Source: a virus (Duplodnaviria > Caudoviricetes). Taken from it: a stretch of 41,198 nt of DNA. The notes below the pieces were generated by a model. It searched no databases and was not told the origin of the DNA. It saw only the letters and a program-made list of their open reading frames with translations. The DNA lies in the IMG/VR virus record IMGVR_UViG_3300044723_002720, positions 1 through 41,198 of that record; one strand, given 5' to 3'. Positions 3,728-40,848 of the stretch are shown piece by piece (position 1 is the first letter of the stretch; every line of letters starts with the position of its first letter). A program made the translations under genes and the position numbers.

Positions 3728-3770
3728 AGGATTGATGGAGTGTCTTCAAAGACACTCCTAATCCTTTTTA
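3728..3770 (+). terminator. Intrinsic terminator after the MCP, built around one copy of the 18-bp palindrome (3739-3756)
   Basis: AGGATT-GAT-GGAGTGTCTT-CA-AAGACACTCC-T-AATCCT followed by TTTT. Confidence 0.7.
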
Positions 3771-16210: not shown

Positions 16211-19200
16211 ATGAATCCACAAGCAATAAATGATGCGTTTAGATTATTTGCATCAAGGGGTTATAAGGGAGATGAGCAAGAGTTTATTTCATTAATATCT
16301 TCAAATCCACAGGCATTTGATGATGCGTATAGATTGTTTGCATCAAAAGGTTATCAAGGTGGAGAGGATGGATTTAGCAATCTAATGGGGATTGGTAAAA
16401 AAAAAGACGAAGAATTACCTTCCACTACTCCCGAAGAGGATGTGGATTTATCTACAAAGGAAGAGAAAGAAGAATTTTTATCGGGTGCATTATCGGAGGA
16501 TGAAATACTTGTAGCTGATATAGAACTTAAAGACGAGCCTAGCGTATCTGAGGTATTGCAGCAAGAGGCAGATGAGAGAACAAGAAGGAAGGAGTTGCAG
16601 GAAAAGATACAGCCTGCATTGGCAGAAAGACAGAAGGAGGAATTTGAAGAGAAATTTCTATCTGATGTTGAGAAGATGTATGAAAGAGAGGAGTTAAGCA
16701 GAGATACACAATTCATAAAAGATACAGAGCAAGACTTCGCTCAATACTACGGTATGGATGGAGATGCTGCTGTCCGTTCACTTCAAGAACAATTCGGCAA
16801 GTATGGTATTACATTCGAGAAAGAAGGTAGGACTTATGGTGGTTCTATCAAAGCTAAGTCATTTGATGGAGAAGAGTATCTAATACCTTTAAATCAATAT
16901 TTAAAAGACATAGAGAGAGGGAAAGAGATTTCACAGGAGTTCAAGTCTTTTATAGAAAGAACTGCAAGAAAGCCAAAGACAGAAATATCAAAGATTGAAG
17001 AGGAGGGTGTTAAGTTTTATGGGGATAGAGGCATAGACTACTTGACATACAGAGATATGCAGGATAGATATAATGATAACATTAGCCTAATCAAGTTCCT
17101 TGAGAAAGCACCATTCGATGAGCCTGCCGAAGTAACTACAGGAGAGTTACCATATAAGGATATGTATGTAGATGGTGTCCTTAGAACGGATTATAGAGAC
17201 CTTATTAACAAAGCAAAGGATGATAATAAAAAGATAAGGGATTATCTATATAACAAAGATGTATATGACACTAGAGTTGATTTTGATTTAAAGCTACAAG
17301 AGAACGCAGAGAAGGTGGCACAGAAAGCTGCTGAATATAATGGCAACTATAAAGGAATGATGAATCAGTTGAACCAAGCAGCACAAGAATTGTTTGGTGT
17401 CGACATAGATAAACTAAAAGATATAGATGTTAAGGATGACCTCCTAATGAAAAGGAAGGATTATCTTTTGCATTACTACAACGAAGCAAAGGAGCAGAAG
17501 AAGTTGGCAGCAGAAACATATGCAATAGCTACATCATATATTGACGAGAAGTATGACAAGCAGTTGAGTGGAGAATTAGTAGAAGGTATGAAGGCGTTTA
17601 CAAATGCTGTTAGTGCAGGACATAGTAGAGGTCAGGCAGCAGAGGTTATATTGTCTATTGCTATGGGATTAACTGATATATCTGATGATGATTCTTCGAT
17701 GGAAGCTGCAAGAAAAATAATGGAACACCTTGACGATGCCGACACAGGTAAGTTTAGTGTTGGCGATAGAGCATACCATAATGCACAAAGTAATTGGGAA
17801 GTTTTAAGAGCATTAAGGAATAGACCTTTGGAATTAATAGGTGCTTTCGTAGGTCAGTCTTTTGCACAAATGTTACCCATTGGTTCTAAGTTAGTTCCCA
17901 CTGCTGTAGCAGCAGGTGCAGCGTATGGTGCATCAGGATTTAGTCCTGTGTCCGTGTTAGGTGGTGCAGCATTAGGATTAAACACAGGTATGGCAGCTAC
18001 CAATGTAGCTATTGAATACACAAATGCTGTCCTTGATGCGATGACCAATCAAGGATTTGATGTATCAGACCCACAGCAGGTGCAAGAAGCATTACAAAGC
18101 GAGGATGTTTGGAGTGAGGGTAGAGATATTGGATTAAAAAGAGGACTTACTATTGGTGCAGTAGACTTCTTGGGTGGTAAGTTTGCAGGTAAAATGATAC
18201 CTACAAGTAAGCTGGCGTCTTCGGGTACAAAGTTTGCAGCACAAGTTGTAGAAAGGATTGCTATTGACCCTGCATTGGAGATGTTAGGGGAGACTTTAGC
18301 ACAAGCAGCAGCAGGTCAAGAGTTAAATTTTGGAGAGATTCTTGCAGAAGGGTTAGGTGCTATTGGTTCTAATGCAGCTATGGGTGGGTTGAATCAGATG
18401 GTCAGCAACCAAAAGAATACAATAACAAAGATTGCCAACGACCTCTCTGATTTAGATACATTTATGGATGACAACATCCTAGATAGACGAGTTCTTAGTT
18501 GGACAGATAGGCAAGAGAAGATGGGAAGGATTGATTCTGATAAGGCACAGCAGATTAGAAACAATATATCCACAAGGAATGAGGCGAGAGAGATAATGAA
18601 TGTAGGCCAAGAAAATAAGCAGAAGCCAAGTAAGAACCCCGAAGCAGAGAAGAGACTTGCTAAGTTGATAAACGCAAAGAAAGAACTAACATCTACTGAG
18701 GCGACACAGGAAGCGTTCTCCGAGCAGATTTCTGCAATAGATAAAGAGATTAAGGAGACAGCGAGAACAGGCGATGTCGTGGCTGTAGAGCAGCAGGCAG
18801 ACCTTTCTGCATTAGAAAGAAGAATACAAGGAGTAGAGAGTGTCTTCGAAGACACTCTAAAAGTTGCTGCACTAACGGAAGAAGAAAAGTCTACTGAGGT
18901 AGTTCCAATAAAAACTAATGTTGAGCAAATCGAGGAGGTGTCTCCAACGAAACAATATTCTTTTGAATTTGAGGAAGGTCAAGTTCCACCTGAACTTCAA
19001 GACTTAGAAGCCGAATCAGAAACAACCACCACTGAGGGTAAAGTTACTCTCACATTCAGTGGGCAGCAGTTAATAGATGCAGAGTTGGCTACACAAGAAG
19101 AGACTCAAGAAGAGGTAATTGATACAGAAATAATTGAGATAGAAGATGCAGCACAAGAAGTAATAGTAAACTACGAAGAGAAAGCAAGGAAAGAACTTCA

Positions 19201-23307: not shown

Positions 23308-23325
23308 AGTGTCTTCGAAGACACT
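23308..23325. repeat. 18-bp palindrome copy (centre CG) at the convergence of the two transcription arms
   Basis: Begins on the base right after the TAA of the last + strand gene. Confidence 0.95.
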
Positions 23326-25415: not shown

Positions 25416-26674
25416 TAGAATAAACTGCTTTGTTTTTCCTTTTGGTTTAACACATCCCTCTTAAAATGTGCAAGGGTATAATCTTTCTTCTTAGACACTG
25501 CCTTATAAATATCATACTCTATTCCATCCTTTGCAAATATCCAATAGACTTTGTTCTTCAACCTATCAGATGTTACCATTCTGTCTTTGCTTTGCCAATA
25601 AGATGTAGCCGAGAAATCTATGTTGTAATATACCAAAAAATCTGCTTCCTTTAAACTGACTCCCTCCCTACCACTAACGATTTGTAATGCTATATTCTTA
25701 TCAGTGTCTTCGAAGACACTCAATTCTGTGGTTAAGCTATCTCCGAACACATCCTTCAATGCGTTCAGTTCCTCCTTGAACTTGTAGAATATTCCAATCT
25801 TCTTACCTAAGAAGTGGGAGTATATAAACTCTGCCTTACTATAATCAAACACCATAGAGTTTCCACCTTCAAACTTTACAGTTCCACTATACATTTGGTG
25901 TAGCTTTTGCATCAGCTTTACAGGTGTATCTGCTAATACCACTTCCTCTTTGCCCTCTATAACTCTATGCTTGGTCAATTTGTTTACCATTCTATAGGTC
26001 GTTGGCTGCATCTCCACCTCTAATATATTCTCCTCTGTTACTACCTTAAATCCTGCCTGCTTCTGTGTAAACGATATAGTGTGTGGCTTCATCTCCTTAA
26101 GGATTTTATCCATACCCCTGCTATAATCATTGACCATCATCGAGTTAATCTTTCGCTGCCTTACATCCACATAATCTTTGGCAAACTTATAGAAGTTGGC
26201 ATAGTTTCTAAATGGATTATCAGCTATGCCATATACTTGATGATACATCTGTGAGTATGATTCGGGAGTCGGAGTTCCACTCAAGAATATAACCTTTGAT
26301 TTGCACTTAGCTACCATGTCTTTCACTTGCTTGGCTCTCTTGTTTGGTTTTGGAAATGCCCCCAATGTGTGTGCTTCATCTGCTATGATTACATCCCACT
26401 TGATGTCAGGTAGCTTGTGCATACTCTCGTAGTTTATAATCCAAATACTGAAGTTATTTGGACACATTAGGTCATAGTCCTTGCTGATTGAATCCATAGC
26501 TTTCTTCTTAGTTAGAAACAGCACATGGCTTACTCCTATCTCTTCGCATATTCCCATAGCAGTTAGTGTCTTGCCTGTTCGAACTTCCATAGCTAGGTAT
26601 AGAAAGCTATTGGTGGATAGCTTCTTTGAGCCTTCGTTTATTATTTCTTTTTGGTATGGTCGAAACTCCATCAT
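25415..26674 (-). CDS. Superfamily 2 (SNF2-like) helicase
   Basis: RPYQ Q-motif, TGKT Walker A, DEAH box, SGTP motif III, Q..DR motif VI. Confidence 0.9.
   Translation of the reverse strand: MMEFRPYQKEIINEGSKKLSTNSFLYLAMEVRTGKTLTAMGICEEIGVSHVLFLTKKKAMDSISKDYDLMCPNNFSIWIINYESMHKLPDIKWDVIIADEAHTLGAFPKPNKRAKQVKDMVAKCKSKVIFLSGTPTPESYSQMYHQVYGIADNPFRNYANFYKFAKDYVDVRQRKINSMMVNDYSRGMDKILKEMKPHTISFTQKQAGFKVVTEENILEVEMQPTTYRMVNKLTKHRVIEGKEEVVLADTPVKLMQKLHQMYSGTVKFEGGNSMVFDYSKAEFIYSHFLGKKIGIFYKFKEELNALKDVFGDSLTTELSVFEDTDKNIALQIVSGREGVSLKEADFLVYYNIDFSATSYWQSKDRMVTSDRLKNKVYWIFAKDGIEYDIYKAVSKKKDYTLAHFKRDVLNQKEKQSSLF
25703..25720. repeat. 18-bp palindrome copy (centre CG), inside helicase CDS
   Basis: Exact core, read as SVFEDT in the helicase frame. 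Confidence 0.95.
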
Positions 26675-31391: not shown

Positions 31392-31409
31392 AGTGTCTTC
31401 AAAGACACT
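31392..31409. repeat. 18-bp palindrome copy (centre CA)
   Basis: GAGAGTGTCTTCAAAGACACTCTC, 17 nt upstream of the exonuclease ATG. Confidence 0.95.
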
Positions 31410-31420
31410 CTCGGATTAAA

Positions 31421-32029
31421 TTATTTTAGGATGTTATTGATTTCTTGCAGGGTTTCTTTCGGTAGTATGTACTTAGTTCTAACTTGTGATATAAGTAACT
31501 CAGTAGCAGTTCCCTTTTCATACTCGTTAGTAATGTACTCTACCACCTTCTTCCAATTAGGAGTACCAACCTTTAGTTGTGGCTTTGTCTTTCTGACTGC
31601 TGCCTTCTCCTTTACCTGCTCAGTAGGTTCACTTGATTGTGGCAAGTCTTCCCCTGCGTAGATGTACAATCCAAGACCATGCCTTGCAATAGCTTTGGTC
31701 AATGACCTTTGGATGCTTGAGTTCACATGGAATGATGTGATTGATTCACAAGGAATACTCTTGTTCCTATAGTCCATAATAGGTAGGTACTCGATGTGTT
31801 CGATGTCGTCTATGCGAACACCTGTCTTTACCCACCCTGTCATTCCATCGTGATGGTAGTTCAATCCATACTCATTCTCATAAACACGATAGGTTGCATT
31901 AGGGTAGTGTTCCTTAACAATACCCCACGCCCACGCCCAAGATAGATAAGACAATCCATTCTTCTTTTCTACCTTGTCGTTTACATTAATCTTGGATAGT
32001 ATCTCCCAAGTTGATTTCGTCTTTGACAT
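31421..32029 (-). CDS. Sak-like (DUF1071, Rad52-family) single-strand annealing protein
   Basis: LSKINVND.VEKK.GLSYLSWAWAW, LPIMDYRNK and QR.LTKAIARHGLGLYIYAGEDLP motifs. Confidence 0.9.
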   Translation of the reverse strand: MSKTKSTWEILSKINVNDKVEKKNGLSYLSWAWAWGIVKEHYPNATYRVYENEYGLNYHHDGMTGWVKTGVRIDDIEHIEYLPIMDYRNKSIPCESITSFHVNSSIQRSLTKAIARHGLGLYIYAGEDLPQSSEPTEQVKEKAAVRKTKPQLKVGTPNWKKVVEYITNEYEKGTATELLISQVRTKYILPKETLQEINNILK

Positions 32030-33049: not shown

Positions 33050-33067
33050 AGTGTCTTCGAAGACACC
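33050..33067. repeat. Palindrome copy (centre CG, one terminal change)
   Basis: GCAGAGTGTCTTCGAAGACACCCTGC. The change gives a G.U pair on the - strand. Confidence 0.95.
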
Positions 33068-33096: not shown

Positions 33097-33306
33097 TTAT
33101 ACCTCGATATGTCGTAGGTTGTTAATCTCCTCCATAATCTCTTCGAGGTGTTCGTTAAAAAGTTCCCTGCCTACACCAAGCAACTCTCCGTTGTTTGTTG
33201 TTTCCATTATGGCTTTCAATTTCTTTAGTGCATCCACCCCTTGATGGGCAGTCCTAAGATAGCTTGCTGTTGCATCAATCAAGATGCTCATTAGTTTGTT
33301 ATCCAT
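33097..33306 (-). CDS. Hypothetical protein
   Basis: 69 aa ORF tiling the operon. Confidence 0.65.
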   Translation of the reverse strand: MDNKLMSILIDATASYLRTAHQGVDALKKLKAIMETTNNGELLGVGRELFNEHLEEIMEEINNLRHIEV

Positions 33307-33316
33307 GTCGTTAAGT

Positions 33317-33610
33317 TTAAAATGTTGTGATTATATTTCCTTCTATTATTTCCATTGTGCTTTGTACTATGTACATGGAAAAAGATTTATCCCCAAACTT
33401 ATTCCATAGTCTTTCATCCCTTGTCTTGATAAAGTCTTGAACCAAACTATAACTCATTATGGTTCTTGCTATAGATTGTATTACACCTACAGATTCTTCA
33501 TCGTTATATCGGATTGCCTTTGGGTTGTCATCCCTTGACCTTTCCCAAGTCGTTGCGACATGGATTAGTATTGCGTTAAAAATTTGTGCTTCAACTGATT
33601 CAATTCTCAT
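33317..33610 (-). CDS. Hypothetical protein
   Basis: 97 aa, ATGA overlap with the upstream gene. Confidence 0.7.
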   Translation of the reverse strand: MRIESVEAQIFNAILIHVATTWERSRDDNPKAIRYNDEESVGVIQSIARTIMSYSLVQDFIKTRDERLWNKFGDKSFSMYIVQSTMEIIEGNIITTF

Positions 33611-33855
33611 TGTCTTCTGTTTTGAAAGTGAATAGATAGTTCCACATCTGTCCTATTGTTGATGATTACATATTCATAGAACCAATCCTTACGGAATACC
33701 TGCATGATTATCTCATCATCTTTCTTGCTAACGAATGTCTTGTAACCCCACGACCTTGTGATGGCATACATCTCTTCGCTTCTTGTTTCAAACTCATAGA
33801 GCCTGCATAATTCCAAGAACAGATGCTTGTTTGTTATGTTCTCGTGTGTTGTCAT
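33607..33855 (-). CDS. Hypothetical protein
   Basis: Start probably 33855 (ATGA overlap with the GH73 stop), 33873 is the alternative. Confidence 0.6.
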   Translation of the reverse strand: MTTHENITNKHLFLELCRLYEFETRSEEMYAITRSWGYKTFVSKKDDEIIMQVFRKDWFYEYVIINNRTDVELSIHFQNRRQ

Positions 33856-34502
33856 AGACTTCTCTTTATCCAATTAGAAAATTCGTTTAGCTTGTACTCC
33901 TCTATTATCCTCAATAGATTCTTCGTGTAGTTTATATCTGTGGCATAGCCACGCTGCTGTAACTCTTTCGCAAACTCGTAGCAATCCAACTCTCGGAAGT
34001 CCAAGTCTGCGTACCTGCTATTCGCCAAGAACCATTCACTCCTATCGACAAAGCATAGTTCTGCACTTTCGTATGTTCTGAACTTACTCTTTCGTGAAAC
34101 TCTTTTACCCTTGACATATTCATCCGAGTAGTAGTCAGCACCCTGCATACCCTTTCGGTATTCCTTGATGCCGAAGTAGTTGTGGTATTCTTTCGCCAGC
34201 TTAGACCTGCCCCAACCACTCTCAAGAATGGCTTGGGCAGTCATAACTTCCATTGGTAATCCCCACTTCAACTCCTCTGCCAATGCAGGAACTAACACCT
34301 TGTTTAGAAAGTCTGCTTGGTATGGTTTCAAATCCAAGTTACCTTGCAGCCAATCCTCTGTACCCTCACGCAACATTTCTTCCAAGTCCGTATCGTATGT
34401 ACGCAACTCTCTGAATGTATCGTATGGCATTTCTAAATCCCTTACACACGATGATAATAATAGTGTGATTATGATTGATACAATTAATCTTTTATTTCTC
34501 AT
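33852..34502 (-). CDS. GH73 glucosaminidase/muramidase (FlgJ-like) with lipoprotein signal peptide
   Basis: AQAILESGWG.S.LA...NYFGIK and GYATD..Y motifs, N-terminus MRNKRLIVSIIITLLLSS-C19. Confidence 0.9.
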   Translation of the reverse strand: MRNKRLIVSIIITLLLSSCVRDLEMPYDTFRELRTYDTDLEEMLREGTEDWLQGNLDLKPYQADFLNKVLVPALAEELKWGLPMEVMTAQAILESGWGRSKLAKEYHNYFGIKEYRKGMQGADYYSDEYVKGKRVSRKSKFRTYESAELCFVDRSEWFLANSRYADLDFRELDCYEFAKELQQRGYATDINYTKNLLRIIEEYKLNEFSNWIKRSL

Positions 34503-35102: not shown

Positions 35103-35120
35103 GGTGTCGTACAAGACACC
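35103..35120. repeat. Degenerate palindrome copy
   Basis: GGTGTCGTACAAGACACC keeps the GTGTC/GACAC arms and the tttgt / ttgtt flanks. Confidence 0.7.
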
Positions 35121-35147
35121 TTGTTATTTAAAAGTTTTAAAGGAGAG

Positions 35148-35165
35148 AGTGTCTTCAAAGACACT
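35148..35165. repeat. 18-bp palindrome copy (centre CA)
   Basis: GAGAGAGTGTCTTCAAAGACACTCCCTC. Confidence 0.95.
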
Positions 35166-35184
35166 CCCTCTGAAATCTGCATAA

Positions 35185-36360
35185 TTAAAACGGAAAATCC
35201 GTATCTGCGTGGAACACATCGCCACATGGAGTGCAGTATGCCAACCCCTCGTACTCGTCAACAAGACATTGTGTACTGCAATTAGGACAGATGTTATCGT
35301 TAGCAAATGTTCTGCTATTGATAGTCCAACTCGGTAATTTTTTCTGTAAGTCAGACAACTTCTGTGTCTTTGTCTTTGTCTTGGTCTGTGTGGGAGTGAA
35401 TGAATAGTCCACCCCATAGTCATAGCTATCCCAATCTGCTGACCACTCGTAGTCATCCCAAGTATTCATATCGTAGCTATTCTGCTTGGTACTGCGATTC
35501 CATATCGTACCCTCATATGATTGTACGACATTCTTACGCTGATGCTCGGCAAGTCCGAAGAAGTCCTCGTTGATGAAGTACACCCACGCATCTACAACCT
35601 CGCCACTATCCAATACAATCTGCGTTACCTTGCGTGTATAGAAGTTGGGATGCCCCTCCAACCTATCCAAGTCAATCATCTCCCAATGGTCGCAGTCATA
35701 CACCTCGACATCTACATTGTGTCCAACACCTTTGGTATCGTACATATACGGAAGACCCGATACACGCAAGGGATATTTACTTTTGGTCTTACCGTTGCCG
35801 ACAAACTTTGCTGACTTGATTAGTCCGTGATTGCCATACCCCTGCTTGAGTGTGCCATAGACAGCCACCCTTTTCATAAGCACATTGTCTTTGGAATACC
35901 AAACGCCATCGTGTCTGTACCAATCATCCTTGTTGTATATCTGATAGGATTTGTAATGCGTGTTGACCGTAACAAATCGGCAGTCAAATTGTGCCAAGTG
36001 TTTCTTCCACTTTGCCCTACGCATATTGCATAGGTGATTAGCCAAGTCTTGTGTGTCGGTCATGTCCTTGTTACCATACCCCATAATTGTACCATTCTGC
36101 ATGAGGTACTCGTGTGGATTGTTGCCACAAGGGAACGGATGGATGTTGTCCTTACACACCTTGCCGATTGTCGCATACCTAAAGTGTGCTATGAATGGTC
36201 TGTTGGTCTGTAATAGTTTCCAATCCCTTGATTCGTGGTATGTAATCTCGTAGCTATCAAGCCACACCACACCAAGTCCATGTGGATTTATGATAGACGA
36301 CCTGCGTAGTATGTTGGTGTCTATTTTGTTGTCGTTATTCTTTACAATAATTACGCACAT
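35185..36360 (-). CDS. Class II glutamine amidotransferase fused to gamma-glutamylcyclotransferase (AIG2-like) and a C-terminal Zn ribbon
   Basis: N-terminal M-C, NPHG.G, HFRYAT, HPF, NG, TD motifs, then VAVYGTLK.G and LD.LEG, then CPNC...CTPC. Confidence 0.88.
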   Translation of the reverse strand: MCVIIVKNNDNKIDTNILRRSSIINPHGLGVVWLDSYEITYHESRDWKLLQTNRPFIAHFRYATIGKVCKDNIHPFPCGNNPHEYLMQNGTIMGYGNKDMTDTQDLANHLCNMRRAKWKKHLAQFDCRFVTVNTHYKSYQIYNKDDWYRHDGVWYSKDNVLMKRVAVYGTLKQGYGNHGLIKSAKFVGNGKTKSKYPLRVSGLPYMYDTKGVGHNVDVEVYDCDHWEMIDLDRLEGHPNFYTRKVTQIVLDSGEVVDAWVYFINEDFFGLAEHQRKNVVQSYEGTIWNRSTKQNSYDMNTWDDYEWSADWDSYDYGVDYSFTPTQTKTKTKTQKLSDLQKKLPSWTINSRTFANDNICPNCSTQCLVDEYEGLAYCTPCGDVFHADTDFPF

Positions 36361-36377
36361 AATTTCTTATATTTATG

Positions 36378-36395
36378 AGTGTCTTTGAAGACACT
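36378..36395. repeat. 18-bp palindrome copy (centre TG)
   Basis: Between amidoligase and GATase, 17 nt before the ATG. Confidence 0.95.
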
Positions 36396-36398
36396 CGG

Positions 36399-37331
36399 TT
36401 AATAATTGTCATATATAAAATCTCCTGCCAATGTACCGTAGTCAACTGCATTGTTGTCGATAACTTCTTGGAACGAAGTGGCAACACGATATATAAACTC
36501 TATACGATTTGCTAATAACTCGTCTGTTTGGCAGTCAGAACGATACATTCTATTAAGAATAGGCAGCATCTTGTCAAACATTTTCTTGAATGTCATACGA
36601 TTCTTACCACTTTCGTGGATGAGTGTGTACAATAACTCATACCTGCGTATCATCTGCTCAACAGAATCTACTCGGTTAATAAGTCTGAACTCTATAACAT
36701 TACCCTTTACCAGCACAGGTTGATACCTTGAACTTATACTGCCGTAGTATCTACTGCCCTCTCGTGCTTCGTCATAGGTACGCAGTGTGATGTTTTGTCG
36801 GCAGTAAGAATTTTTTAATCGCCCTCTCCATAGTGCGTATATGATTCCCATAAATGGTCTTACCCTTTTCAGTATGTCGTTACCATACATATCCCTAATA
36901 CCTATCGTTATGTGTCCACCACAATCTTGATTGGCAGGAGAATACTGACTATCTATAATCCTTTCGGCATCATAGAACAAGGAGAACACCTTGCTTCGCC
37001 ACTCGCTTGGAGGAAGTAATGGTAGGATGTTTGTGATTGCTTCCACACCACAAGAGCCATCCCTTTCGAACCCACAGAATAATGGGTAACGCTTGACTGC
37101 TCGTGGTGCAAACTCATTCTTTTCAATCTCGAATCCTATGGTATACCTACATACATCGGCATCCATAATGAGTCCTCTATCTCTTTTTGGTAAGGACTTG
37201 ATGTCATCTTCTAATCCACTTGCCATATATCTTGGACTTGGACTATTGTGATAACCTACTACTCGGTTTCTGTGAGGAACGGCATCATTTGTATACACGA
37301 TTCCCTTTGGTTTTAATAAATGCAGATTCAT
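36399..37331 (-). CDS. Putative amidoligase (COOH-NH2 ligase, Amidoligase_2-like)
   Basis: TIGFEIE, DGS..VE, CGGHI and IEFR motifs, adjacent to GATase-GGCT. Start reassigned to ATG 37331. Confidence 0.8.
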   Translation of the reverse strand: MNLHLLKPKGIVYTNDAVPHRNRVVGYHNSPSPRYMASGLEDDIKSLPKRDRGLIMDADVCRYTIGFEIEKNEFAPRAVKRYPLFCGFERDGSCGVEAITNILPLLPPSEWRSKVFSLFYDAERIIDSQYSPANQDCGGHITIGIRDMYGNDILKRVRPFMGIIYALWRGRLKNSYCRQNITLRTYDEAREGSRYYGSISSRYQPVLVKGNVIEFRLINRVDSVEQMIRRYELLYTLIHESGKNRMTFKKMFDKMLPILNRMYRSDCQTDELLANRIEFIYRVATSFQEVIDNNAVDYGTLAGDFIYDNY

Positions 37332-37350
37332 AATAACTGATTGCTTTGTG

Positions 37351-37368
37351 AGTGTCTTTGAAGACACT
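37351..37368. repeat. 18-bp palindrome copy (centre TG)
   Basis: 19 nt before the ATG at 37331. Confidence 0.95.
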
Positions 37369-37379
37369 CGATGATTAAA

Positions 37380-37610
37380 TTATAATTCAATTTCTTTTGT
37401 AGTAACAATGTCTGTTACTCCCCAAGCTACGCTGACAGATACCTTGTACCCACAATCTCGCAGCTTTTTAATAATGGCGTGTCTGTTGTGCCAAACATCT
37501 TTATCCCAACCACTATAATCGCAAGTGCATAATTTGGAATAGCCGTTCTTTGTTGCATAGTCCATTTCTTCTTTGGCTATGCGTGTCAACTTCTGTCTTA
37601 AGTCTTCCAT
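37380..37610 (-). CDS. Hypothetical early protein
   Basis: 76 aa with an A-rich leader. Confidence 0.7.
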   Translation of the reverse strand: MEDLRQKLTRIAKEEMDYATKNGYSKLCTCDYSGWDKDVWHNRHAIIKKLRDCGYKVSVSVAWGVTDIVTTKEIEL

Positions 37611-37629
37611 CCTTTTTTGTTTTAGTTAA

Positions 37630-37854
37630 TTAATTTATTGACTTATTGTTATTACTTATAGTATCTAGGTAAATAATTTCATCGTTAATTGTTAGGTATT
37701 CTCTACCATTCATCTCTGAATCTCCCCACACTTCCATATAGCCAATGCAAAAATCATTGACATACAATTCTACCATTGAGCCTTTTTTAGTGTAAGATAA
37801 TTCGTCATATGTATTAAAGAATATCCTATCCTGTTCTGTTAGTATCCCTATCAT
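37630..37854 (-). CDS. Hypothetical early protein
   Basis: 74 aa, downstream of the promoter at 37902-37933. Confidence 0.65.
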   Translation of the reverse strand: MIGILTEQDRIFFNTYDELSYTKKGSMVELYVNDFCIGYMEVWGDSEMNGREYLTINDEIIYLDTISNNNKSIN

Positions 37855-37901
37855 ATCTTTGTATAGATTTATAAATAAATTAATTAGTTACATTTACCTT
37901 A

Positions 37902-37933
37902 CAAATATAAGACATTTATATGACAATGTCAAA
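37902..37933 (-). promoter_or_regulatory. Consensus Bacteroidota sigma-A promoter
   Basis: On the - strand TTTG, 20 nt, TATATTTG. The spacer holds the inverted repeat GACATT-N8-AATGTC. Confidence 0.75.
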
Positions 37934-37964
37934 TATTATTTTTTCTAAAGTGTTCTGAGAACAG

Positions 37965-37982
37965 AGTGTCTTTGAAGACACT
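37965..37982. repeat. 18-bp palindrome copy (centre TG)
   Basis: ACAG-AGTGTCTTTGAAGACACT-AT-CTGT, overlapping the TAG of the upstream gene. Confidence 0.95.
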
Positions 37983-38148
37983 ATCTGTGGCCATACTTTT
38001 CGTGGAACTCTGCCTGCCTGACTAATCTTTTAGCCGACTTAACTATGGCATCCCACCACTCTTGCTCGGTCTTGTTCGCAGGCTTGTTCGCCCAAAAAGA
38101 ATCGTTCTTTTGTAGCCGTTTTGCTAATTCGATTACTGCTTTCTCCAT
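37981..38148 (-). CDS. Hypothetical early protein (55 aa)
   Basis: ATG at 38148, 19 nt from the palindrome. The track's GTG start lies inside the repeat. Confidence 0.7.
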   Translation of the reverse strand: MEKAVIELAKRLQKNDSFWANKPANKTEQEWWDAIVKSAKRLVRQAEFHEKYGHR

Positions 38149-38167
38149 TTTAATTTTGATTTGTGAG

Positions 38168-38185
38168 AGTGTCTTCAAAGACACT
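38168..38185. repeat. 18-bp palindrome copy (centre CA)
   Basis: tttgtGAGAGTGTCTTCAAAGACACTCCCttgtt. Confidence 0.95.
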
Positions 38186-38207
38186 CCCTTGTTAATTGTA
38201 TTTAGTT

Positions 38208-38576
38208 CTACTCTTCAAGGAAGCATTCCTTTCCATTCGGAGTGATGTGCATTTTTACTCGACCCATCGGATGGTCTATATAAATTACTGCCTGCTTTAC
38301 ATTTCTGTATGGTATCAATTTATACTCATCTTTCCTGCCTTGTAGTCCCATCACAAAATCTATTCCAAGATCCATTATACTGAACCAATTCGTTCCGTCT
38401 TTAGCATCCTTATCGTCTACATCTAGGGTAGTTATGTATATATATCTTATAACTCGGTTGTCTTTTCGCCATATGTGAAAATATCTGTCGATACTTTCTT
38501 CTCCAATCATTAGCTTTGCAGGTTTCTGCACGATTGGAATTACTGAATCTACGATTCCATTAGAAAACTTTCTCAT
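38208..38576 (-). CDS. Hypothetical early protein
   Basis: 122 aa filling the space between two repeats. Confidence 0.75.
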   Translation of the reverse strand: MRKFSNGIVDSVIPIVQKPAKLMIGEESIDRYFHIWRKDNRVIRYIYITTLDVDDKDAKDGTNWFSIMDLGIDFVMGLQGRKDEYKLIPYRNVKQAVIYIDHPMGRVKMHITPNGKECFLEE

Positions 38577-38594
38577 CTTGTTTAGCTTTGTGAG

Positions 38595-38612
38595 AGTGTC
38601 TTCAAAGACACT
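38595..38612. repeat. 18-bp palindrome copy (centre CA)
   Basis: Same extended flanks as the 38168 copy, 18 nt before the ATG. Confidence 0.95.
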
Positions 38613-38627
38613 CCCTTGTTTGAAAAT

Positions 38628-38996
38628 TTATTTGTTGAACCCACGCAATATTTCGTCGGTAAATCTCTCTCGATTAGTGTTATAATTCCACTTCATAGAA
38701 GCAATCACATTTACTATTTCGTCTATTGAATCTTGGTCAGAGTACAAATTACTTTCGACTGCTAAGATTCCATTGAACCATACCTTTATGATAAAGTGAT
38801 TGTCTATAGTGCCATCCATATGTAGCGTGGTTTCTATGTTGGTTTCTATTTTAGCAGACTCCAACTGATGTTCCAATACCTTTGGGTTATCAAATTTTAT
38901 CTTGAGTTTCCCACTATGGATATACCCATCTATGCTTTTGGGATTGTTGGTAGCCAATTCCTTGACTAAATCCCCAATGTGTTTAAATAAATACAT
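38628..38996 (-). CDS. Hypothetical early protein (122 aa)
   Basis: Start reassigned to ATG 38996, fills one repeat-bounded unit. Confidence 0.75.
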   Translation of the reverse strand: MYLFKHIGDLVKELATNNPKSIDGYIHSGKLKIKFDNPKVLEHQLESAKIETNIETTLHMDGTIDNHFIIKVWFNGILAVESNLYSDQDSIDEIVNVIASMKWNYNTNRERFTDEILRGFNK

Positions 38997-39015
38997 TTTG
39001 TTTAGCTTTGTGAAG

Positions 39016-39033
39016 AGTGTCTTTGAAGACACT
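39016..39033. repeat. 18-bp palindrome copy (centre TG)
   Basis: tttgtGAAGAGTGTCTTTGAAGACACTCTCCgatt, 19 nt before the ATG. Confidence 0.95.
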
Positions 39034-39063
39034 CTCCGATTAGAAAATTTATTTGTTCATAGT

Positions 39064-39375
39064 TTAGTATTCAAAACCTTTTACTTCGGTTTCATTACCA
39101 TCCCAATAGTACCCATTCAGATACCACACAAAATTCTTTTGGTATATGTGTACATTGGGCAGTCCATTAAGCCTTTCCTTTGTGGTGTTTGTTGCCCAAC
39201 CACAATTACTTATGTATAGCTTTCTACCTTGTTCGGTATGCTTTATCTTTGCTATGACATTTCCATGTAGGCATAGCCAAGTTTCGTGCGTGTCTGCAAT
39301 CACTTGCATATTGCTTTTCGCAAACGGCTCATTGTTCAGAAAAGCCTTGACACTTTCGTGAGTTATCTTTCTCAT
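39064..39375 (-). CDS. Phage hypothetical early protein
   Basis: MRKIT...LHGN.IA...GW.TNTTKERLNGL pattern, which I recall from other phage early proteins of unknown function. Confidence 0.75.
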   Translation of the reverse strand: MRKITHESVKAFLNNEPFAKSNMQVIADTHETWLCLHGNVIAKIKHTEQGRKLYISNCGWATNTTKERLNGLPNVHIYQKNFVWYLNGYYWDGNETEVKGFEY

Positions 39376-39394
39376 TTAAAGATTCTTTGTGAAG

Positions 39395-39412
39395 AGTGTC
39401 TTCGAAGACACT
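39395..39412. repeat. 18-bp palindrome copy (centre CG)
   Basis: Same extended flanks as the 39016 copy, 19 nt before the ATG. Confidence 0.95.
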
Positions 39413-39426
39413 CTCCGATTGAAAAA

Positions 39427-39681
39427 TTATTTACTTTCGTTATACTTATCTACCCATTCTTGTGGTGTGTAAATGACACACTCCTTTGTTGAGTTTTCGG
39501 ACTCTATCCTAACTTGCATATACTCCACAGTTATTCGTGACCATGTGCGTACACCATTCGGAAAATCCATTCGTGTTACTCCCTTGCCAAGTTTTACTCC
39601 CTTTTCATTCGGATACTTTGCAAATAGTGCTGACAACTCCTTTAATAGTTCAGCTTTGTCAATCTTAATGACATCATTCAT
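39427..39681 (-). CDS. Hypothetical early protein (84 aa)
   Basis: Start reassigned to ATG 39681. Confidence 0.75.
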   Translation of the reverse strand: MNDVIKIDKAELLKELSALFAKYPNEKGVKLGKGVTRMDFPNGVRTWSRITVEYMQVRIESENSTKECVIYTPQEWVDKYNESK

Positions 39682-39700
39682 TTTATTTAGCTTTGTGGAG

Positions 39701-39718
39701 AGTGTCTTCGAAGACACT
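39701..39718. repeat. 18-bp palindrome copy (centre CG)
   Basis: tttgtGGAGAGTGTCTTCGAAGACACTCCCCgatt, 19 nt before the ATG. Confidence 0.95.
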
Positions 39719-39731
39719 CCCCGATTTCAAA

Positions 39732-40025
39732 TCAATAAATACAACCTTTGTTTAGACTTTCGAAATCGAAATTCCACCCACTTTTCAGTAGTTCTGCGAT
39801 TACAAAATTCGGCATCGCAGTTCCCCAATTCTTTGTGATTAAGCTATCTTCGAATTTGAAGAAGCCACTTATACCATAGGTACTGAAGTTATCAAACTCC
39901 CAACGACCATCGCCATCCTTAGAGAATCTTAAAATCAATTCCCCATTGTACCCATTGTATTTAATGGGTTGGCAATGTCTTACTGCTGACGCATTTTGCA
40001 GCAGTGTTACTACATGACATTCCAT
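39732..40025 (-). CDS. Hypothetical early protein (97 aa)
   Basis: ATG at 40025, 19 nt from the palindrome. The longer track ORF reads through two repeats from a TTG. Confidence 0.65.
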   Translation of the reverse strand: MECHVVTLLQNASAVRHCQPIKYNGYNGELILRFSKDGDGRWEFDNFSTYGISGFFKFEDSLITKNWGTAMPNFVIAELLKSGWNFDFESLNKGCIY

Positions 40026-40044
40026 ATCATTTTTTTCAGTGAAG

Positions 40045-40062
40045 AGTGTCTTCGAAGACACT
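40045..40062. repeat. 18-bp palindrome copy (centre CG)
   Basis: Exact core. Confidence 0.95.
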
Positions 40063-40127
40063 CCGTAAATCCAAATTTCTTCTACTACCTTAAGCCCTAT
40101 CCTTTGCAGGAATCGGGCAGGCAGGAG

Positions 40128-40145
40128 AGTGTCTTCAAAGACACT
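40128..40145. repeat. 18-bp palindrome copy (centre CA)
   Basis: Exact core with the CCCTTGTT flank, only 65 nt from the previous copy. Confidence 0.95.
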
Positions 40146-40169
40146 CCCTTGTTTGTAGATAGCCAAAGA

Positions 40170-40811
40170 TTACATTTCGCTAACCATAGCCATTAGTTCG
40201 GTCAAAGAAGCCAAGATGCTTTCTTTGTCGCAGGTAGTTATAATCGTACCATTGTCGATACGGAAGTTTACCCCATTCGTTTTGTCCACAAAGGTATGCG
40301 TAGTCGTACCCTCGCTTTCGCCATCGGCCTCACCGTTGCCTTCCCCTGATTGGTCAGCACTCCCCTTTGGAGGATTAATCGCGTCTTCAATAGACATCCC
40401 CTCTTCAAGGTTTTTTGCGAATTTTAACAATTCTGCAATACTCAAACTTTTCCTTTTGCCGCTCTCGTTTTGAAACTCGATAGCAGCACTTTCGTACTTA
40501 GACCACATTTCTTGTCCTAAGTCGTAGGCCTTAATTGCCTTGTATAACCAAGATTTGTCAAAGCCAAAGGATACTTTAAAATAGCCATCCTTTCTTAAGT
40601 CTAACCCCATAGACATTCGCAATTCTTTACAGCTCGGCGAATCGAAGTAAGCCGAAGCATTTTTAGCTAATTCACCTAACTCAAGTGAAGCATAAAATTT
40701 GCGTTTGTCATTGTTAACAAGTTTAGCCTTAGCTCTTTTGATTGCTTCGGTATTAATACTTGTTTTAACTCGGTCATCGTTAAAAAATCTTTTGATAATA
40801 GTATTCATCAT
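40170..40811 (-). CDS. First early gene, possible HTH DNA-binding protein (DUF3102-like pattern)
   Basis: LELGELA...FGFDKSWLYKAIKAY...SIAELLK resembles DUF3102-type helical proteins. An acidic Gly/Ser linker precedes a small C-terminal domain. Confidence 0.5.
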   Translation of the reverse strand: MMNTIIKRFFNDDRVKTSINTEAIKRAKAKLVNNDKRKFYASLELGELAKNASAYFDSPSCKELRMSMGLDLRKDGYFKVSFGFDKSWLYKAIKAYDLGQEMWSKYESAAIEFQNESGKRKSLSIAELLKFAKNLEEGMSIEDAINPPKGSADQSGEGNGEADGESEGTTTHTFVDKTNGVNFRIDNGTIITTCDKESILASLTELMAMVSEM

Positions 40812-40830
40812 TTTTGATTTGTGAAGACCA

Positions 40831-40848
40831 AGTGTCTTCGAAGACACT
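40831..40848. repeat. 18-bp palindrome copy (centre CG)
   Basis: GAAGA-CCA-core-CAA-TCTCC, 19 nt before the ATG at 40811. Confidence 0.95.

Follow-up and report, generated by a model that had tools for sequence, protein, structure and literature searches.

The window analysed here is the whole of the IMG/VR virus record IMGVR_UViG_3300044723_002720, 41,198 nucleotides (nt) long, and its early region (35,103 to 40,848) is punctuated by a nearly invariant 18-bp palindrome. The palindrome array is real and family-wide, and the palindrome very probably pairs with a protein of the same phages, the product of the first early gene (40170-40811), called the binder below. The explanation that we lean towards is that the binder is a phage-encoded multi-site DNA-binding regulator, which acts as a transcription roadblock or repressor in a stoperator-like manner. 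A sequence-only reading of the window had proposed that the repeats both control expression and make the early genes exchangeable. The expression-control half of that proposal is supported, and a candidate cognate protein has been found for it, but the exchangeable-cassette half is not, and the repeat array is not a gene-cassette system. No earlier description of the motif or the system was found in the literature, in a search with most subscription journals and supplements outside its coverage.

The palindrome and its candidate partner

All twelve copies listed by the sequence-only reading were recovered, as was a degenerate copy, GTGTCGTACAAGACAC, at 35104. Six further copies lie outside the array (3739, 18839, 23308, 25703, 31392 and 33050), two of them inside coding sequences (18839 and 25703). 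Altogether the window has 18 matches at three mismatches or fewer, 17 of them exact, where 0.11 are expected, and none of 100 shuffles came close. The array intervals are 83-1230 nt long and bear genes. As had been described, nine of the eleven hold one minus-strand open reading frame (ORF) each (391, 310, 55, 122, 122, 103, 84, 98 and 213 amino acids, aa), one holds two ORFs (76 and 74 aa) and a Bacteroidota-type promoter, TTG-N20-TATATTTG, at 37932, and one (40063-40127) has no ORF. The promoter call (37902..37932) uses the Bacteroidota consensus.

By an estimate from 14 of its 64 parts, IMG/VR contains the exact 18-mer in about 560 stretches, and 20 near-complete records, among 38 picked by motif match, have 3-17 copies each. 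We compared 34 genomes, namely the window, 31 IMG/VR relatives hand-picked to cover motif-rich, variant and motif-free genomes, MW202828 and 50 kb of elemoE. Ten of the 34 are free of sites. In the relatives that have them the copies are spread genome-wide, 3-18 per genome. They crowd most where the early region begins, at about one per kb, and become sparser along the genome. The 16-bp core is genome-specific and reads GTGTCTT, GTGTCCT, GTGTCGT, GTCTCTT, GTCTGTT or GTCTCGT, mirrored around a pyrimidine-purine (YR) centre. Short tandem C-rich repeats stand upstream of the first site, and upstream of the binder gene, in G002, G005, G039 and G041, possibly near a genome end. One 182-kb viral contig starts with three GTCTCTT-type sites in 530 nt (L526, 66-592), a locus with no binder match.

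The co-occurrence of sites and binder is what makes the first early protein the candidate cognate protein for the palindrome. All 24 site-bearing genomes encode a member of its protein cluster and none of the 10 site-free genomes does, a pattern that no other cluster shows. A second set, picked by primase, comprises the 50 longer contigs out of 79 primase loci. There, all 15 binder-positive records have sites (3-16 each), and among the 35 binder-negative records 27 are site-free and eight have 1-5 sites, those eight being 45-74% complete. Among the records that are at least 90% complete, sites are found in 8 of 8 binder-positive and 0 of 9 binder-negative ones. Loci fetched by the binder protein alone contain the site in 79 of 80 cases. 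The primase tree (33 rows, quick method) needs 3-5 changes of binder state and, since at least three are required, the co-loss of sites and binder was not a single event. We infer that the binder binds the sites. Its family has 381 representatives at 50% identity; a metagenome scan gave only two loci, and the binder sequence pattern found no relative in GTDB genomes.

The model of the binder (predicted local distance difference test, pLDDT, 85) has a long N-terminal coiled-coil helix (residues 1-56 are helices only), a helix-turn-helix (HTH) at residues 74-97 and, after an acidic linker that is disordered, a beta-beta-beta-alpha C-domain. In the PDB, Foldseek matched it best with fragments of P1 ParB (2NTZ and 1ZX4, E 0.3), and the model could be aligned with the DNA-binding domains of SopB (Z 4.3; 79 residues at a root-mean-square deviation (rmsd) of 3.8 A) and KorB (Z 3.6; 78 residues at an rmsd of 3.6 A) and with P1 ParB (Z 3.6). 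The homodimer prediction scored 0.78 against 0.01 for the best control, a mark reached by 20 of 30 solved pairs and 1 of 23 single chains; the runs agree in at least 82% of contacts at a pLDDT of at least 81, and the contacts involve residues 21-56, in the N-terminal helix, and 170-213, in the C-domain. The binder is predicted, by modelling, to be a ParB-like HTH dimer. A CTPase domain is absent from the model, with the coiled-coil helix in its place, so the binder should not act as a sliding clamp that depends on cytidine triphosphate (CTP).

Searches with the binder sequence gave no match in PDB and no family in Pfam or PHROGs, and the ParB family is absent among the listed Pfam matches of 32 binder members. 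The sole lead from a protein atlas was DUF3102, on 42% of one cluster, and a single-sequence model of the HTH part (pLDDT 47) was not used. A two-residue recognition code, in which K or R at helix residue 2 would go with G or C at site base 3, and Q at residue 4 with G at base 6, was rejected, both rules being broken by new loci. The common QKS[FY] helix was seen in no variant-site lineage, and the window and G019 deviate from it too yet keep the common site. No R-helix binders were found in a viral scan. Close relatives of the window binder (P0007-P0013) have a very different recognition helix, KYRTCQK.

The features of the window are as follows, the palindrome copies being given without strand.

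40831..40848: palindrome copy that precedes the binder ATG by 20 nt; its RNA stem extends to 15 bp
40170..40811, minus: first early gene; its 213-aa product is the candidate cognate DNA-binding protein and a predicted homodimer (co-occurrence, model, fold and dimer predictions)
40128..40145: palindrome copy that follows the binder stop at about 25 nt
40063..40127, minus: ORF-free interval, GCAA-capped hairpin
40045..40062: palindrome copy
39732..40028, minus: early ORF, 98 aa, no family in family searches
39701..39718: palindrome copy
39427..39681, minus: early ORF, 84 aa, no family in family searches
39395..39412: palindrome copy
39064..39375, minus: early ORF, 103 aa, Kyano_Gp96 / phrog_554 (family searches)
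39016..39033: palindrome copy
38628..38996, minus: early ORF, 122 aa, no family in family searches
38595..38612: palindrome copy
38208..38576, minus: early ORF, 122 aa, no family in family searches
38168..38185: palindrome copy
37981..38148, minus: early ORF, 55 aa, no family in family searches
37965..37982: palindrome copy; the promoter-like element lies about 33 nt downstream
37902..37932, minus: Bacteroidota-type promoter-like sequence TTG-N20-TATATTTG
37630..37854, minus: early ORF, 74 aa, absent in the run X8 strain
37380..37610, minus: early ORF, 76 aa
37351..37368: palindrome copy
36399..37331, minus: putative amidoligase (Amidoligase_2-like), 310 aa, in 18 of 24 binder-positive and 0 of 10 binder-negative genomes
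36378..36395: palindrome copy
35185..36360, minus: glutamine amidotransferase-like and gamma-glutamyl cyclotransferase protein, 391 aa, cluster in 17 of 24 and 0 of 10
35148..35165: palindrome copy
35103..35120: degenerate palindrome copy
33050..33067: palindrome copy, one mismatch, outside the array
31392..31409: palindrome copy flanked by the Sak and exonuclease genes
25703..25720: palindrome copy within the coding sequence of the helicase, where it reads SVFEDT
23308..23325: palindrome copy in the gap where two gene arms converge
18839..18856: palindrome copy inside the coding sequence of a 2317-aa virion protein
3739..3756: palindrome copy behind the capsid-like gene; like a terminator, it has an extended stem and a T-run

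Placement of the sites and possible mechanisms

About 90 of 220 copies in the 24 site-bearing genomes are inside ORFs, according to our own ORF calls, among which some small ORFs are doubtful. The helicase gene contains a site in 14 of 23 binder-positive and 0 of 8 binder-negative genomes, and the GroEL gene in 8 of 21 and 0 of 8. In both genes the copies arose through in-place substitution and not insertion, and on this ground insertion of a mobile element was rejected as their origin; in G059 the helicase site has changed to that genome's own variant, with an altered peptide. Mismatches between the core half-sites are on the sense strand C.A in nine cases and U.G in six, and with C.A about as tolerated as U.G the core has no RNA-wobble preference. 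In-gene copies moreover lack a stem extension (0.70 vs 0.76). The origin by substitution, the absence of a wobble preference in the core and the missing extension inside genes together suggest that the site is recognised as duplex DNA.

Of 115 promoter-like sequences, none has a site whose centre falls between -50 and +25 of the end of its -7 box, and the fixed spacing to promoters of an activator or a repressor was not seen. The median distance of a site from the stop codon before it is 20 nt, and 13 of 24 genomes have a site at most 51 nt after the binder stop. The lack of promoter overlap and the placement after stop codons fit a roadblock that lets the binder be made and damps the genes downstream. 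Host RNA polymerase would transcribe the binder gene first, and the dimer would load on sites just after (at times before or inside) its own gene, and then occupy further sites, about one per kb through the early operon and more sparsely in the replication and virion genes. Bound dimers would throttle read-through without covering promoters, which could time early shut-off and late release, and an incoming relative that has the same variant of the site might be silenced as well. As the site is palindromic, intergenic copies could serve also as hairpins or terminators in the mRNA once they are transcribed.

Several observations weigh against the roadblock. The main difficulty is that tyrosine integrase (PF00589, control detected in 14 of 14) and ParA (PF13614) were each found in 0 of 29 records, so that no dormant state is evident that a genome-wide silencer could maintain; as ways round this we propose timing by replication-driven titration, or the exclusion of superinfecting kin. 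The likeness to ParB is weak, with a Foldseek E of 0.3 and Z scores of 3-4 that are level with unrelated helical proteins, and we give these scores weight only because three members of the ParB family recur. At helix position 2, genomes with the GTCTCTT site have K or V besides R, and in one of them Q stands at position 4. The intergenic copies extend as sense-strand hairpins, with 2.56 vs 1.60 extra pairs when G.U is included (0 of 500 shuffles), and their extensions have 43 G.T against 3 A.C. On their sense strand the centre is CA in 69 and TG in 23, which a symmetric DNA site does not explain, though the genomes are related. With our own descriptor, 7 of 9 hammerhead-like matches cleave 7-10 nt after the site, and hairpin extension and hammerhead cleavage both require that RNA is made through it.

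The most serious alternative, which we nevertheless hold to be unlikely, is architectural, namely that the same dimer and sites bridge to loop, compact, anchor or protect the DNA, starting from the end that enters first. Two predicted dimer interfaces (21-56 and 170-213) joined by a flexible linker would suit such a task, the nearest structure is the HTH and dimer domain of P1 ParB, and the sites avoid promoters, occur in essential late genes and keep their early spacing of about 1 kb whatever the size of the genes. A system of this kind would however lack both ParA and a CTPase domain, and the sites hug gene ends (the median 20 nt) and the binder stop, which suggests a logic of transcription.

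The RNA features could also mean that the hairpin is the functional form, as a 3'-end protector, terminator or processing signal on which the first early protein acts. In the early regions of relatives the palindrome is directly followed by type III hammerheads (in 9 of the 20 sources given, with an Rfam E between 7e-8 and 7e-3 and one match above the gathering score), U-rich tails follow 18 of 131 intergenic copies, the stem extension on the sense strand has its G.U bias, and the hairpins fold well. The extension, the tails and the hammerheads do suggest a second, RNA-level role for the intergenic copies. As the sole function it is rather improbable, because in-gene copies have no extension, the core arms are fixed in sequence beyond what pairing requires, with C.A tolerated as often as U.G, and the protein looks, in its model, like an HTH dimer. 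The hammerheads are in L005, L025, L033, L047, L056, L066, L069, L071 and L128 (at about 245-375 in each); hammerhead-like matches are present also in binder-less genomes, and in the window Rfam gave nothing at E<=1 and no hammerhead. The ORF-free interval 40063-40127 is possibly a small RNA element of its own, with no match in Rfam. Of this interval 39 nt recur at 92% in the binder-less G062 (L159, 1487-1525), and 40080-40118 is matched by contigs from three runs, where the flanks are different.

Still less probable is that the repeats are recombination ends that make the early genes into exchangeable cassettes of an integron- or PeSL-like kind (PeSL, promoter early stem-loop), possibly by way of the annealing protein of the phage, Sak (31421-32029). 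The window does have one gene per repeat, and extended shared flanks (at least 30 of 50) in 2 of 66 of its copy pairs, against none in 21 other genomes. In the early region of most relatives, however, there are 2-5 ORFs to each site, with about one only in the window, MW202828, G016 and the truncated G040. Some intergenic modules of about 60 nt look copied as units in the window lineage, and the one-site-per-gene look of the window was probably built by such local copying. Alignment breakpoints, which the cassette reading would place at the repeats, fall within 40 nt of a site in 2 of 50 cases against a null of 8.8%, and within 100 nt in 10 of 50 against 20.5%; they come from close pairs of binder-anchored loci that are not independent, six of them from a pair with no site in range. 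Two clean losses are away from the repeats, namely an ATG-to-ATG deletion of the 74-aa ORF in the run X8 strain (37607-37852) and a skip of 33297-33616 in run X5. One assembled X5 contig joins 38592 to 39396 and 39431 to 40077, a weak joint with a shared piece of 36 letters; the other repeat joints and loose ends in population contigs mapped to other copies of the repeat and were discarded. Many copies, finally, are inside essential genes and arose by substitution, and no integrase was found in the 29 records.

That the sites serve a host regulator or nucleoid factor is hardly credible, as the site does look like a typical dimer operator but is at chance level in 596 Gb of GTDB genomes and co-occurs perfectly with a phage gene. 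The 18-mer is in 33 GTDB stretches, about chance by our own estimate, and the multi-copy matches are single contigs of at most 56 kb in metagenome-assembled genomes (MAGs), probably co-binned phage DNA. Multi-site contigs (L591-L593, L603, L605, L609 and L615) are in MAGs of Cytophagales, Flavobacteriaceae, Aliivibrio and Chthoniobacterales.

A bolder extension of the roadblock reading, which we regard as doubtful, is that the CTPase-less ParB-like dimer, as the very first gene product of widespread non-integrating podoviruses of aquatic Flavobacteria, uses a graded ladder of operators to gate transcription-driven DNA entry and gene timing. The site variants would then define superinfection-immunity groups, and palindromes and hammerheads would cut and cap the early mRNA into units.

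The source phage and neighbouring genes

The window record is a 68%-complete virus contig, present mainly in estuary metagenomes, with portal and virion proteins in one arm and primase, helicase, exonuclease and Sak in the other. Its capsid-like protein is 69% identical to that of MW202828, 53% to Maribacter phage Panino, 47% to the elemo phages and 42% to phi38:1, and its relatives are aquatic, Flavobacteria-type podoviruses of about 60 kb related to phi38:1 and Elemovirus. Judged by its capsid-like protein, the phage belongs close to group 2 of the marine Flavobacteriaceae phages, the phi38:1-like one (PMC5332604), and is not crAss-like proper despite a common muzzle-like domain. The capsid-like protein is alike in phi38:1-like group 2, Pervagoviridae and Elemovirus, and GroEL is present in relatives. 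The cultured elemoE 6-9C, phi38:1, Panino and phi18:3 differ from the window in that all four lack both sites and binder gene. Family searches matched neither an integrase nor a Cas family among the 44 window proteins, in agreement with the sequence-only reading, and viral scans with two early proteins, each alone, gave zero relatives. A metagenome contig (L622, 1-2130) continues past the end of the window with a non-coding stretch, a small membrane protein and groEL on the opposite strand.

On the minus strand the amidoligase-like gene adjoins the glutamine amidotransferase-like/gamma-glutamyl cyclotransferase gene (35185-37331), and the clusters of both are found only in binder-positive genomes. 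Similar operons of phages have been proposed to modify the host envelope. The early arm also has a glucosaminidase with a lipoprotein-like N-terminus (33852-34502, minus strand), of which a variant allele with the middle replaced (34294-34417) is present in three runs.

Comparison with known systems

Genome-wide control through many operators is known from temperate mycobacteriophages and from plasmid RK2. Here it appears in phages without integrase or partition ATPase, and its role in a lytic or carrier-state cycle becomes a testable question. A probable site and role can now be assigned to an unnamed protein family of a large group of aquatic Bacteroidota phages, and the variants of protein and site are ready cognate and non-cognate pairs for binding tests.

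In the cluster A mycobacteriophages L5 and Bxb1 the repressor bound to stoperators acts as a transcription roadblock (PMC6550527), a block of elongation that goes with immunity. The resemblance is that one phage protein has many genome-wide sites, mostly away from promoters (PMC6550527; PMC9283540), which in our case is concluded from co-occurrence, and that the site motifs vary with the repressor between lineages and sites are found near and downstream of the repressor gene (PMC6550527). Stoperators, on the other hand, are asymmetric sites that follow the direction of transcription and take up a monomer, in temperate phages with integrase or parABS (PMC6550527). Here the site is a 16-18-bp palindrome, the protein is a predicted dimer of unrelated fold, and neither integrase nor ParA was found in 29 records.

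KorB of RK2 with its operator OB, P1 ParB and F SopB resemble the binder, by a weak structural match, in the ParB-type HTH and the predicted C-terminal dimer domain, and their sites too are palindromic and at times far from promoters (PMC11790492). As a CTP clamp, KorB can act from sites that are distant (PMC11790492), and KorB and ParB have a CTPase domain where the phage protein has a coiled-coil helix; unlike in those systems, no ParA/IncC or KorA partner was seen for the binder.

The T4-type PeSL elements are likewise repeated stem-loops between non-essential early genes, with some intergenic modules that look copied, and they are units of promoter and terminator that go with gene shuffling and mini-circles (PMC2839356). 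Our sites differ in being off promoters (0/115), inside genes and linked to a phage protein, with breakpoints not enriched and a U-rich tail in 18/131. The array differs from an integron in that tyrosine integrase is found in 0/29 records and gain and loss are not at the repeats, and from a CRISPR array in that the intervals of 83-1230 nt hold genes and no Cas family is among the window proteins. The system is of the genome-wide multi-operator type, in a new form.

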